Origin: a virus
Lineage: Duplodnaviria > Caudoviricetes
Reading direction: 5' to 3' (one strand)
Virus record (IMG/VR): IMGVR_UViG_3300032214_001248
Location: 1-59,796 of that record
Length of the DNA: 59,796 nucleotides
Made by a program: the position numbers and the translations under genes. A model generated the notes under the pieces. The model saw only the letters and a list, made by a program, of their open reading frames with translations, was not told the origin of the DNA and made no database searches. Below are positions 23,465 to 25,667 of this stretch, in pieces (position 1 is the stretch's first letter; each line of letters begins with the position of its first letter).

Positions 23465-24097
23465 TTAAGTATCGCCTTTTATATTATACCACTCTTGCTC
23501 TTGCCAAGTCAACTGTTGTTTGAGTTTCTTGTCGAAAACCATAAGATACCGATGTTTACGACTCCTATCACGCCACTCACCATCAGCACCCTTGATACTA
23601 CCTCGTGAATGTTTGGTCCCATCAGCATAATAGAAATCTTTTTTAGCGTCAGTTAAACCGTAGTACTGAAAATTACAAGCTCTGTATATAATTCCAGAGT
23701 GGTGATTAGAGTCAGCGTAACTAAGAACAGCACGAACTGTGGCATCTTTTTTAAACCTCTTAATGCAACGACTTACGAACCAAGACGTAATATTATATTC
23801 TTCTTTCTGAACTTCAGGATGAACACACAATCTTGATAACTCATAAAGTCCTTCCTGTTCATTTCTTTCTAGTCCAAACGCCCCTACTGCTATTTCTGGG
23901 ACGGGGAGACTAGTGAAAATAACCCCACCAAGACAACCCCCAATATTAAGAGGGCATTCCCAGTCAGAATGTTTGAAAAGTCCATAGTTATAACCCGATT
24001 TGTATGTTTTACTTTCATCCTTAAGATAATGATAAGTTAAAAGGAGTGGTTCAAGTTCTTTTTTCGACACTCTTTCTATGTAGTATTGACTTTTCAC
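23465..24097 (-). CDS. mom: Mom-like DNA adenine modification protein (GNAT fold)
   Basis: HYL, YELSRLC, SWFVSRCIK and AVLSYAD..HHSGIIYRACNF.YYG match the Mu Mom family pattern. Confidence 0.75.
   Translation of the reverse strand: MKSQYYIERVSKKELEPLLLTYHYLKDESKTYKSGYNYGLFKHSDWECPLNIGGCLGGVIFTSLPVPEIAVGAFGLERNEQEGLYELSRLCVHPEVQKEEYNITSWFVSRCIKRFKKDATVRAVLSYADSNHHSGIIYRACNFQYYGLTDAKKDFYYADGTKHSRGSIKGADGEWRDRSRKHRYLMVFDKKLKQQLTWQEQEWYNIKGDT
23483..23512 (-). promoter_or_regulatory. sigma70-type promoter inside the 3' end of mom
   Basis: TTGACT-N18-TATAAT with TG at the extended -10 position. Confidence 0.55.
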
Positions 24098-24284: not shown

Positions 24285-24306
24285 TTTGGAGTTTTAAAGA
24301 ACTCAG

Positions 24307-24377
24307 AGCCCCATAACAGAATTGAACTGTTCTCTGCAGTTTACAAAACTGCTGCATCACCACAATGCTTATAGGGC
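24307..24377 (-). tRNA. trnT: tRNA-Thr(UGU)
   Basis: GCCCTAT/ATGGGGC acceptor stem, GCAGT-TTTGTAA-ACTGC anticodon arm, AACAG-TTCAATT-CTGTT T arm; no encoded CCA. Confidence 0.9.
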
Positions 24378-24379
24378 AT

Positions 24380-24649
24380 TTAATCAACAGGTAACATTTC
24401 TGGATTTTCCAGTTCAAGTTCAAACATAAGAGGATGACATTCTTCAAGCATCAAGTAGTATGAGGATTGATAAAGGTCTTCTGGTTCAAAACGTCTTTCG
24501 TTATCTGCTAATTTGACTAACTCCAAGTCGAATAAAGAATCGTCTGGAAGTTCGTCAAAAGTAAAAGGAACTTGATTTATGAAGTACATAAGAACAATTT
24601 GTTTTCCGCGATTGTACCATACATATGCGGCATCTATTCTGTACTTCAT
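24380..24649 (-). CDS. hypothetical protein
   Basis: 89-aa acidic ORF between the HNH gene and tRNA-Thr. Confidence 0.7.
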   Translation of the reverse strand: MKYRIDAAYVWYNRGKQIVLMYFINQVPFTFDELPDDSLFDLELVKLADNERRFEPEDLYQSSYYLMLEECHPLMFELELENPEMLPVD

Positions 24650-24685
24650 AGAATAGTTCCTTTACTTTTGTTTATTTAGAGGAGG

Positions 24686-25150
24686 TTAACTTCTCTTGTT
24701 TTTACCTCTATATGTCTCGGTTTGAGCGTGACAGTTAGGGCAAAGAAGGCGAAGGTTTTCTAAACGATTATCGTGGTGATTTCCGTTTATGTGGTCTAAT
24801 TCAATAGGAGTAGGTTGACCTCTCCATTCTTTTATGCCACATTCTTCACATTTATGTTCTTTTATTCCTTCAATAATAAGTCTATTACGAAGTCTAAAAG
24901 ATTGAACTATACTGTTCTCTTTAAGATAATAGTCAACTGGTTTTTTTGGTCCAGTTTTCTTATCTTTATTCCACGCTTGTCCGTGGAAGTGAGAGGTATC
25001 AATACCCAACTTTGATATTCTTCTATGAGTTGTTTGGTAATTTCCCCCTGCTGGTATTATGTTAAGTTTTTGTAAAACTTGCCTAATACTACCAGAAGTT
25101 TTTACCGCCTCACGGAGTTCGTCTTCAGTATAGGTATATCGTATATTCAT
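24686..25150 (-). CDS. free-standing HNH homing endonuclease
   Basis: CEECG...IELDHINGNHHDNRLENLRLLCPNCHAQT, with a helical N-terminal region likely to bind DNA. Confidence 0.9.
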   Translation of the reverse strand: MNIRYTYTEDELREAVKTSGSIRQVLQKLNIIPAGGNYQTTHRRISKLGIDTSHFHGQAWNKDKKTGPKKPVDYYLKENSIVQSFRLRNRLIIEGIKEHKCEECGIKEWRGQPTPIELDHINGNHHDNRLENLRLLCPNCHAQTETYRGKNKRS

Positions 25151-25194
25151 TTAAATGGTAAACTTTATGTTTATTTATAAAGTTTACCATTTAA
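25151..25194 (-). promoter_or_regulatory. 18-bp perfect hairpin containing a late promoter (TATAAATA at 25172-25179), directly before the HNH ATG
   Basis: TTAAATGGTAAACTTTAT-N8-ATAAAGTTTACCATTTAA immediately followed by ATG. Confidence 0.8.
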
Positions 25195-25478
25195 TAGGGC
25201 GAGCGAGACTTGAACTCGCACGAGCATACGCTCAACAGATTTTCTTACCACTATAGTTTTCACTACCCTTTCAGTTTGTGGTCTGGACTATACCTTCACC
25301 ATACCTTTCGATTTAGGTGTTCCCCGTCTAGTCTCTACACCTTCAAGATTTCTCTTGCTTGGCTCGGTATTGCCATTTTACAGGTTTCACCGAATTTGAG
25401 GAATTACACTCATAAGGTTTCCCAAATGAGGCTCAATTTTCATAAGTCTGGTGTGTCTACCGATTCCACCACCGCCCC
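25195..25478 (-). tRNA. trnL: tRNA-Leu(UAA) interrupted by a group I intron (exons 25444-25478 and 25195-25243)
   Basis: 5' exon GGGGCGGTGGTGGAATCGGTAGACACACCAGACTT joined to 3' exon AAAATCTGTTGAGCGTATGCTCGTGCGAGTTCAAGTCTCGCTCGCCCTA gives an 84-nt class II tRNA with loop CT-TAA-AA. Confidence 0.92.
25244..25443 (-). ncRNA. group I intron ribozyme (IC3-like), 200 nt, no internal endonuclease gene
   Basis: P1 with U.G pair (CUU|A...UGAG), P AAAUUCGGUGAAA, Q AAUACCGAGC, R GUGUAGAGACUAGACGG, S GGUAUAGUCC, terminal G, several GAAA tetraloops and a CCUAA...UAUGG receptor in P8. Confidence 0.92.
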
Positions 25479-25487
25479 ATAAAAAAC

Positions 25488-25667
25488 TCAGAGGAAACTG
25501 AGTTGACTGTTACATTCTACCATATAAGTCGGAGGATGTAAACGGCAGTATTCATTAAACGTAATCTTCATTTCTTTATTGGTGAGATTACAGTTTTCTG
25601 CCGCTTTTGGAACGTTCCACTTTGCAGTGAAGAGCATTTCCATTGATTTTCTTGTTTCTGGACGCAT
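25488..25667 (-). CDS. small hypothetical protein (59 aa)
   Basis: Not in ORF track. MRPETRKSMEMLFTAKWNVPKAAENCNLTNKEMKITFNEYCRLHPPTY... Confidence 0.65.
   Translation of the reverse strand: MRPETRKSMEMLFTAKWNVPKAAENCNLTNKEMKITFNEYCRLHPPTYMVECNSQLSFL
25514..25542 (-). promoter_or_regulatory. sigma70-type promoter upstream of tRNA-Leu
   Basis: TTTACA-N17-TAGAAT with extended TG, ~35 nt upstream of the tRNA 5' end. Confidence 0.6.

Follow-up and report, generated by a model that had tools for sequence, protein, structure and literature searches.

A split tRNA-Leu(UAA) gene and an adjacent free-standing HNH endonuclease gene in a freshwater T4-like cyanophage: probably two separable selfish elements at one tRNA-cluster hotspot

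The window analyzed here, meaning the whole 59.8-kb stretch (59,796 nt) of IMG/VR virus record IMGVR_UViG_3300032214_001248, carries on its minus strand a transfer RNA (tRNA) gene for tRNA-Leu(UAA) that is split by a group I intron and, directly downstream, a gene for a free-standing HNH endonuclease. The nearest named relatives of this fragment are Synechococcus myoviruses (Kyanoviridae), lake and freshwater metagenomes contain the stretch, and its source is a freshwater T4-like cyanophage. Comparison with related phage loci indicates that two separable selfish elements, an intron lacking an open reading frame (ORF) and an HNH cassette, probably occupy one tRNA-cluster hotspot, with the HNH gene acting as a free-standing homing cassette. 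The original prediction had treated the pair as a single collaborative unit, in which the nuclease cuts intronless tRNA-Leu(UAA) alleles and the intron shields the genome that carries both; its view of the HNH as a homing endonuclease is retained, and the HNH family is tied to tRNA-Leu(UAA) and its intron; the intron-HNH unit and the intron-based protection are not supported. Its description of the locus, an ORF-less tRNA intron beside an intact HNH gene on the same strand, is borne out by Rfam, by ARAGORN after splicing and by Pfam. The span that it gave (24686..25478) is bounded exactly by the HNH stop codon and the first base of the tRNA, and the two genes do adjoin, at a spacing of 44 nt between 25195 and the ATG at 25150 rather than the predicted 45 nt.

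The split tRNA-Leu(UAA) gene (25195..25478, minus strand) was recognized by ARAGORN on the spliced sequence and is interrupted after U34. Its 35-nt 5' exon (25444..25478, minus strand) ends in CAGACTT, the last base of which is U34, and is followed by a 200-nt ORF-less group I intron (25244..25443, minus strand) that begins with ATGAAAATTGAGCC and ends in GGTAAG with the terminal G. The 49-nt 3' exon (25195..25243, minus strand) supplies the rest of the anticodon loop, a long variable arm, the T arm, the acceptor strand and the discriminator A, and does not encode CCA. Excision of 25244-25443, which joins the CTT before the intronic ATGAAAA to the AAAA after GGTAAG, yields a cloverleaf that ARAGORN calls tRNA-Leu(taa), with the junction at anticodon positions 34/35. 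The Rfam group I intron model (RF00028) matches 25262-25453 over its full length (60.4 bits against a gathering score of 50, E = 7.4e-13), and no sense-strand ORF of 40 aa or more lies inside the intron. It is of the cyanobacterial tRNA-Leu(UAA) type, which we take to be subgroup IC3. ARAGORN in standard mode missed the split gene, and its tRNA-Tyr call under the -i option, with a misplaced intron, was rejected; a heuristic splice-and-rescan script was used instead as the detector of split tRNAs. Because standard tRNA finders miss split genes, phage tRNA-Leu counts are underestimated in annotation. A scan of viral contigs for the P7 core also returned heuristic calls of putative group I introns in tRNAs Lys UUU and Arg UCU (L132, L140, L153, L145, L155 and others).

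The fold of the intron was examined by covariation, using RNAalifold on 41 distinct ORF-less phage pre-tRNA-Leu(UAA) sequences. The consensus comprises 66 pairs, with compensatory double changes in 52, and the acceptor and anticodon stems pair across the intron, again with compensatory changes. In 40 of the 41 a U.G pair occupies the 5' splice site, and every sequence has the terminal G; the consensus from RNAalifold does not include P7. The intron is a real ribozyme as judged from this covariation, which establishes the fold and from which splicing is predicted. A hint of excision in nature comes from a 230-nt contig of a riverine RNA library (run X16, record 11, placed on 25273-25440), which is a circularly permuted intron of a close relative (about 95% identity or more) and does not report this phage's own splicing. 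In that contig GTGGTAAG, which ends in the last G of the intron, is joined straight to ATGA, the junction of a full-length intron circle; the joint was not found in the one DNA run compared. Two other candidate joints were set aside, namely a 24871-to-25443 joint in DNA run X2, one side of which has only 29 letters, and an X18 contig with a 30-nt terminal redundancy over the intron, the junction of which is ambiguous.

The HNH gene (24686..25150, minus strand) starts at an ATG and encodes 154 aa, matching Pfam PF01844 above the cut-off (E = 3.2e-6) and phrog_10822 (E = 2.2e-52). The protein is composed of an N-terminal three-helix domain, a linker and a C-terminal CxxC...DH..N..N..CxxCH ββα-metal domain, in which C101, C104, H120, N132, C137, C140 and H141 are invariant in 47 HNH relatives. 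Its AlphaFold2 model has a mean predicted local distance difference test score (pLDDT) of 89.6, with a strand-strand-helix at residues 117-142 predicted at pLDDT above 90. Relatives of solved structure were not found by sequence below E 0.03, nor did Foldseek return a PDB match at E 0.001 or better; its best matches, which are weak (best E 0.014), are to the HNH domains of DNA endonucleases (McrA, TagI) and to winged-helix DNA-binding domains. The enzyme matches HNH families only, and a GIY-YIG domain was not found in it. An intact HNH motif with zinc-binding cysteines, as in free-standing HNH homing endonucleases, is thus present, and the protein most likely acts as one. Contigs from RNA libraries cover the gene at about 88% identity only, and so represent a relative and have no bearing on expression in the window phage.

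The family of this enzyme is tied to one tRNA gene. Relatives were taken as the best 80 of 389 found in IMG/VR (52-90% identity), of which 79 were evaluable, the locus of the remaining one (L018) being cut by a contig end; these and the other comparative counts rest on metagenomic contigs, possibly near-duplicates, from samples of the best 80 relatives or of the loci fetched. Each of the 79 evaluable relatives is either at most 150 nt away from a tRNA-Leu(UAA) gene or situated in its intron, and the adjacency is therefore not a matter of chance. In 58 loci the HNH follows an intronless tRNA-Leu(UAA) on the same strand, typically 42-52 nt downstream, and in 18 it holds the same position after an intron-bearing tRNA-Leu(UAA); it stands just upstream of an intron-bearing tRNA-Leu(UAA) in one locus and inside the intron on the opposite strand in two. 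The layout of a collaborative unit, an ORF-less intron with an adjacent free-standing HNH, is accordingly present in the window and in 18 of the 79 relatives. In three further intron-bearing loci (L099, L122, L128; ~1645-2103) an HNH lies directly downstream of the tRNA on the opposite strand, in convergent orientation. More distant relatives (38-50% identity) sit inside tRNA clusters in all five cases examined in named phages (S-CRM01, Gordonia phage GodonK, Erwinia phage Cronus, Citrobacter phage Michonne and Pseudomonas phage LCK69), beside tRNA-Leu(CAA or UAG) or tRNA-Gln. In a scan with the HNH of L079, relatives 41-54% identical had an intronless tRNA-Leu as their neighbour; those no more than 38% identical had a different tRNA beside them, or no tRNA, and the link to tRNA-Leu is lost below about 38% identity.

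Alignment of alleles reveals conserved flanks with two clean insertions, the intron after the CTT of the anticodon loop and a cassette of about 510 nt between the tRNA 3' end and the conserved CCTCTAAATAA leader of an 89-aa ORF. In the window the right boundary of the cassette is the conserved CCTCTAAATAAACAAAAGTA leader of that ORF (24650..24685, minus strand; CTAAATA at 24673-24679), from which HNH-plus and HNH-minus sequences match again. Near-identical cassettes stand behind three different tRNA-Leu bodies (L013, L014, L016). A second sample, neutral to both elements, was anchored on a conserved 59-aa ORF on the other side of the tRNA and comprised the best 80 of 540 relatives, 72 of which were scorable. 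The HNH is present in 10 of these 72 syntenic loci and absent from 62, with clean boundaries, which is the presence/absence pattern of a free-standing homing endonuclease. Together with the 79 of 79 relatives at tRNA-Leu(UAA), this upholds the earlier suggestion that the HNH belongs to that class, as far as its sequence and distribution can indicate.

The same neutral sample addresses whether intron and HNH travel together. One syntenic locus carries both elements, six carry the intron only, nine the HNH only and 56 neither; three of the 56 carry a different HNH family elsewhere in the region. The HNH thus occurs in 1/7 intron-bearing and 9/65 intronless loci, which is no association (Fisher p = 1.0, or p = 0.60 with the window added). 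Intron and HNH had been predicted to form a two-part system, and independent distribution among relatives had been named in advance as the observation that would count against it; that is what the co-occurrence counts, with ten changes of intron state on the HNH tree, revealed. The collaborative alternative proposes that the HNH recognizes the anticodon-loop region, that the intron splits and so protects the site, and that cutting drives intron and HNH into a recipient together. It draws on the layout itself, in which 44 nt separate the free-standing HNH gene from the tRNA with the ORF-less intron on the same strand, and is opposed by the lack of association just described and by the scan of viral contigs for the P7 core. 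That scan found at least 37 intron-split tRNA-Leu(UAA) genes among 80 fetched loci, and of the 37 listed, 12 have an HNH of the window family, three have only a partial upstream HNH-motif match and 22 have no HNH match within about 1.4 kb. On these and the further grounds below, collaborative homing appears unlikely as an account of the window.

Phylogeny points the same way. In a quick maximum-likelihood search with 69 HNH proteins, intron state changes 10 times on the tree and strongly supported branches force at least eight of these changes, at least eight to ten flips that are hard to reconcile with joint transmission of the two elements. Intron-linked free-standing rows are not clustered (105 of 500 shuffles were as low), and the window's own clade (Shimodaira-Hasegawa-like approximate likelihood-ratio test 99) otherwise consists of three intronless loci. 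One HNH protein is identical in an intron-bearing locus (L125, on the same contig as L014) and an intronless one (L016), and the closest HNH relatives of the window (88-90% identity) adjoin intronless tRNAs, as in L007/L252, with an HNH at 90% and a tRNA without intron. Conversely, L020-L022 have an intron 98% identical to that of the window and an HNH only 67% identical, and L014/L015 have the same exons as the window, with an intron that matches that of the window at only 86% identity. By these sequence comparisons the combination in the window is one of four freely assorting allele states, and would not be an obligate two-part system.

The intron itself also appears to move. The exons of L033, which has both intron and HNH, are identical to those of L269, which has neither, and tRNA-Leu bodies of the short (75-nt) and of the long form house introns about 90% identical to each other, from which it follows that the intron moves, or is lost precisely, on its own. 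Intron-bearing alleles share the exon sequence next to a 98%-identical intron (28 nt on the 5' side, 11 nt on the 3' side) and differ in the rest of the tRNA; such short tracts look like co-conversion centred on the anticodon loop and are in that respect favourable to collaborative homing.

Self-protection of HNH-bearing genomes was a further part of the original prediction, which assigned it to the intron. Two mature tRNA-Leu sequences occur unchanged both in loci with the HNH and in loci that lack it (L017 with and L247 without; L036, L056, L058 and L236 with and L238 and L250 without), so that neither the intron nor tRNA differences can protect those HNH-bearing genomes. HNH-bearing genomes do not need the intron for protection, since 58 of the 79 family members stand next to intronless tRNAs, with the same CTTAAAA loop, and since some tRNAs next to the HNH are identical to those of HNH-less genomes; both facts also count against collaborative homing. 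Because HNH-bearing genomes usually have an intronless tRNA, self-protection is probably not intron-based. As far as the sequences can tell, the likelier source is the cassette, which would interrupt a site lying partly in the tRNA 3' end and partly in the flank downstream of it, or else self-cutting that the phage tolerates. Self-cutting of T4 DNA by SegB has been reported as tolerated (PMC2330249).

The leader of the HNH gene has features of regulated phage endonuclease genes. An 18-bp hairpin (25151..25194, minus strand; RNAfold ΔG -18.9 kcal/mol) extends across the whole 44-nt spacer between tRNA and HNH. Within it, the consensus of T4 late promoters, TATAAATA (25172-25179), extends from the last part of the 5' arm into the loop, and the 3' arm reaches as far as the ATG. 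In 72 of the 79 relatives' loci TAAATA occurs within 60 nt upstream of the HNH, and in 70 a hairpin of 6 bp or more encloses it, with arm sequences that vary by lineage; in 52 of the 79 a gap of 0-3 nt separates the 3' arm from the ATG. The same hairpin layout has been described for I-TevI, I-TevII, I-TevIII, segB and Aeh1 mobE, and in T4 read-through transcripts hide the translation start while late transcripts start inside the hairpin and are translated (PMC2988022). A late-promoter function of TATAAATA is inferred from T4 by analogy. A position among phage tRNA genes, with a hairpin-enclosed late-promoter motif at the gene start whose signal function is putative, is that of SegB.

Taken together, two separable elements at one hotspot would operate as follows. 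The intron in the anticodon loop would be removed by self-splicing, by virtue of which the tRNA would stay functional. The cassette of about 510 nt, made up of the hairpin with the late-promoter motif and the 154-aa HNH gene, is inserted exactly at the tRNA 3' end. Late in a mixed infection the HNH would nick or cut HNH-less alleles in or beside tRNA-Leu(UAA), after which recombinational repair would copy the cassette into them. The hairpin would keep read-through tRNA transcripts from being translated, and transcripts from the late promoter inside it would be translatable, as with I-TevI and segB of T4. The intron, about 50-250 bp from the cassette, could hitch-hike by co-conversion if the donor has both, and would also spread and be lost independently; its co-mobilization with the HNH would be at most occasional.

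A further feature of the leaders concerns the possible recognition site. About 30 of 76 cassette leaders start, directly after the discriminator base, with the octamer ACTTAAAA, which is the tRNA-Leu(UAA) anticodon-loop sequence (L010-L016, L019-L024, L030-L040, L048-L051, L063, L065 and L078; window equivalent 25185-25194), and TTAAAA is present in the first 16 nt of 30/76 HNH-plus loci vs 0/67 HNH-minus loci. The window leader has ATTAAAT at that place. ACTTAAAA could be an operator or homing-site mimic, or could have arisen by chance in AT-rich DNA; since it is short, rich in A and T and shared by leaders that are related, it is treated as a lead and not as evidence. If it were an operator in imitation of the homing site, of the kind reported for I-TevI (PMC2988022), it would lend weight to collaborative homing. 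It also enters a more speculative proposal, possible though rather doubtful, of an arms race on the tRNA gene, in which the HNH recognizes the invariant anticodon loop (ACTTAAAA, copied as leader operator), the intron, the swaps of tRNA body (74-77 vs 83-88 nt) and the cassette are alternative escape alleles, and repeated capture of the HNH by the intron is the counter-move. If that were true, a single phage population would show all the stages by which a mobile intron is born, and would do so in the earliest known group I introns of phage tRNA genes.

Members of the HNH family have in fact been found inside the intron. Relatives at 39-58% identity are encoded within the homologous tRNA-Leu(UAA) intron of other phages: in sense in the P6 loop, with the stop codon in a P7 strand, in a 595-kb uncultured phage (L005, 49% identity), the same protein being present in P6 sense in L108 and L136; in sense in the P1 loop in L149; and in antisense in the P6 loop in L076, L079, L096 and L159. 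Because relatives are encoded inside the same intron, the link of the HNH to tRNA-Leu(UAA) and its intron is real at the level of the family. These arrangements (P6 sense, P1 sense and P6 antisense) are a point for collaborative homing, and are equally the expected end point of the pathway from free-standing to intron-encoded endonuclease. Branches outside the 55-row main free-standing clade of the tree are all intron-linked; an intron-linked ancestor of the family was nevertheless dropped as a conclusion, the sample being biased because most rows outside that clade were found via the intron.

A second HNH family was observed in three loci (L002, Synechococcus phage DSL-LC03, 2563-3050; L224, 3174-3590; L266, 3119-3508). 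It has a cysteine-rich N-terminus, and only its C-terminal HNH motif is common with the window enzyme (56% over 54 aa). The gene is located immediately upstream of tRNA-Thr(UGU), so that its stop codon and the start of that tRNA overlap, and it has a leader similar to the one in front of the window-type HNH. Ahead of it in DSL-LC03 stands the 5' half of a different tRNA-Thr allele, which breaks off at G35 of the anticodon and so places the junction inside the anticodon. A cassette junction exactly there is also a point that collaborative homing can claim by comparison.

The tRNA at the hotspot is itself variable. Syntenic tRNA-Leu(UAA) genes (L207-L286) measure 74-77 nt, without a long variable arm, in 40 of 65 cases and 83-88 nt in 25, and mean pairwise identity at the syntenic locus is 0.65 for tRNA-Leu and 0.69 for tRNA-Thr, compared with 0.83 for the DNA of the flanking 59-aa ORF. 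Divergence above that of flanking ORF DNA is unusual for tRNA genes. One explanation is that the HNH benefits the phage, SegB-like breaks driving recombination, amplification or replacement of tRNAs and hence escape from tRNA-targeting host nucleases, with the intron and the variable tRNA body as products. The divergence of both tRNAs and the alternation of 74-77 nt and 83-88 nt forms at one site would be expected from this, as would the occurrence of the HNH family in tRNA clusters of unrelated phages, and SegB has been reported to amplify tRNA-Tyr against Septu and to be widely co-localized with tRNAs (PMC13096335). That benefit was shown for a GIY-YIG enzyme and not for the HNH family of the window, tandem amplification is not seen in the window, and 62 of 72 syntenic relatives lack the HNH, which speaks against its being needed; a benefit of this kind is distinctly improbable as the main explanation.

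The origin of the intron was traced in cyanobacteria and in phages. Among 401 sampled cyanobacterial genomes, 109 gave a match at E 0.001 or better, the best matches being 63-81% identical (63-69% at full length; the 81% belongs to a partial match), and a near-identical donor was not found among the 401. Identity among phage contigs is 85-98%, and because this exceeds the 63-81% seen in cyanobacteria, the phage intron represents a lineage circulating among phages and not a recent capture from the genomes searched. A donor search with the P7-core pattern in bacterial genomes was not useful, the matches listed being mostly proteobacterial and acidobacterial tRNA introns. No named cyanophage with the intron was found in the GenBank phage collection, in which seven records match, among them four uncultured phage genomes of 0.6-0.7 Mb and Pelagibacter phage HTVC120P. 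HTVC120P (MH598807.1, 19653-19799) and the uncultured crAss-like gut phage cr111_1 (66789-66841) contain segments 79% and 91% identical to parts of the intron, respectively, with no annotated feature beneath.

Small cyanobacterial genomes bear on one more alternative, that the HNH cleaves the host tRNA-Leu(UAA) or its gene and that the adjacent altered or intron-bearing phage tRNA is a resistant replacement. Of six such genomes with a match to the 5' exon only, five have an intronless tRNA-Leu(UAA) and the sixth match is to tRNA-Leu(UAG); two further small genomes have an intron. In the intronless genomes the match to the phage 5' exon is about 86-93% over about 30 nt. An intronless gene of this kind in 5/6 genomes examined and the strict adjacency of the HNH to one isoacceptor are what a host-directed enzyme would lead one to expect. 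Its intron-encoded relatives and sporadic distribution are classic marks of DNA homing, and its weak structural matches are to DNA endonucleases (McrA, TagI), which make such a host-directed role very improbable.

Several considerations weigh against two separable elements as the explanation. The target site, the choice between nick and double-strand cut, and self-immunity are all matters that we infer, and the RNA evidence consists of assembled contigs of relatives and not of this phage. The test of association includes only seven intron-bearing loci, and its metagenomic contigs cannot count as independent samples. The window shows no enrichment of TATAAATA (four found against 6.9 expected), so the promoter assignment rests on position and analogy. 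The relatives encoded inside the intron imply that at least some family members cut near enough to the anticodon loop to mobilize the intron, and the window enzyme could likewise cut near it; ACTTAAAA at the start of many leaders would be in keeping with a homing site where the intron is inserted.

The surrounding locus reads, on the minus strand, 1954-aa fiber gene, Mom-like gene, tRNA-Thr(UGU), 89-aa ORF, HNH, spacer, split tRNA and 59-aa ORF. The next tRNA of the cluster, tRNA-Thr(UGU) (24306..24377, minus strand), was found by ARAGORN and Rfam. The conserved 89-aa ORF (24380..24649, minus strand; phrog_4134, function unknown) forms the right flank of the variable region and the conserved 59-aa ORF (25488..25667, minus strand; phrog_1308) the left. 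Between the fiber gene and the tRNA cluster, a 210-aa ORF (23465-24097, minus strand) matches Pfam Mom, a DNA-modification family (E 3.3e-22). Other ORFs, of 202 and 159 aa, are inserted between the 89-aa ORF and tRNA-Thr in L231 (3070-3678) and L285 (3050-3529), respectively, and the region is a general insertion hotspot.

Several components of this locus are already known, namely endonucleases in tRNA clusters, collaborative and trans homing, the cyanobacterial tRNA-Leu intron and an anticodon-specific intron endonuclease. A group I intron in phage tRNA genes appears to be new: according to a 2014 review, phage group I introns to that date were all in protein-coding genes, despite the many phage tRNA genes (PMC3984707), and a later report was not found in the full-text literature searched, coverage of which leaves most subscription journals outside. 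An HNH family tied to one isoacceptor also appears new, as does the full set of intermediate arrangements in one family. These arrangements are five (beside an intronless tRNA, beside an intron-bearing tRNA, convergent, in the intron in sense, and in the intron in antisense) and form a natural series in which the merging of free-standing endonucleases with ORF-less introns into mobile introns can be tested. Culturable phages with more distant relatives in their tRNA clusters (S-CRM01, Michonne, Cronus, GodonK) offer possible test systems.

The window intron resembles the cyanobacterial tRNA-Leu(UAA) intron in its insertion at U34/A35, in its core motifs and helices, in being ORF-less and in its size class of about 200-250 nt, and differs from it in residing in phage genomes, in being polymorphic among close relatives and in having some copies with an HNH ORF. 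An intron in the Synechocystis tRNA-fMet gene encodes an endonuclease whose specificity is for the region of the anticodon, as stated in the title of a paper cited in PMC3984707. This is a precedent for a homing endonuclease that is encoded in a group I intron of a tRNA gene and directed at a tRNA's anticodon region; the setting there is bacterial, and the tRNA and the nuclease fold are different; the window enzyme lies outside the intron and in a phage. The Synechocystis enzyme is reportedly named I-Ssp6803I and said to have a PD-(D/E)XK fold.

Among phage systems, T4 mobE and the defunct I-TevIII intron exemplify trans homing (PMC2790892). Like mobE, the window gene is a free-standing HNH gene beside an intron-bearing gene and could carry the neighbouring intron by co-conversion; mobE lies between nrdA and nrdB, and its mobilization was shown by experiment whereas that of the window intron is only possible. 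Free-standing endonucleases in phage tRNA clusters include T4 SegB, a GIY-YIG enzyme, and T5 F-TflI/II/IV (PMC2330249; PMC2988022). The window HNH shares with SegB a free-standing gene between tRNA genes that is present or absent in close relatives, and a late-promoter motif in a hairpin by the start codon. SegB recognizes a general T-psi-C motif with no isotype preference (PMC13096335), whereas the window enzyme is of the HNH family, is tied to tRNA-Leu(UAA) and stands a fixed 42-52 nt behind it in most loci. Collaborative homing has been described for F-CphI with the ORF-less psbA intron of cyanophage S-PM2 and for the DNA-polymerase intron system of phages ΦI/W31 (PMC3984707). The window differs from the F-CphI/psbA case in that its host gene is a tRNA and not a protein gene, in that its enzyme is an HNH and not of the Endo VII type to which F-CphI belongs (PMC6083498), in that intron and endonuclease assort independently, and in that most family members flank intronless genes. 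It agrees with the F-CphI/psbA and ΦI/W31 pathway in that relatives of the window endonuclease are found inside the intron elsewhere, as that pathway predicts.

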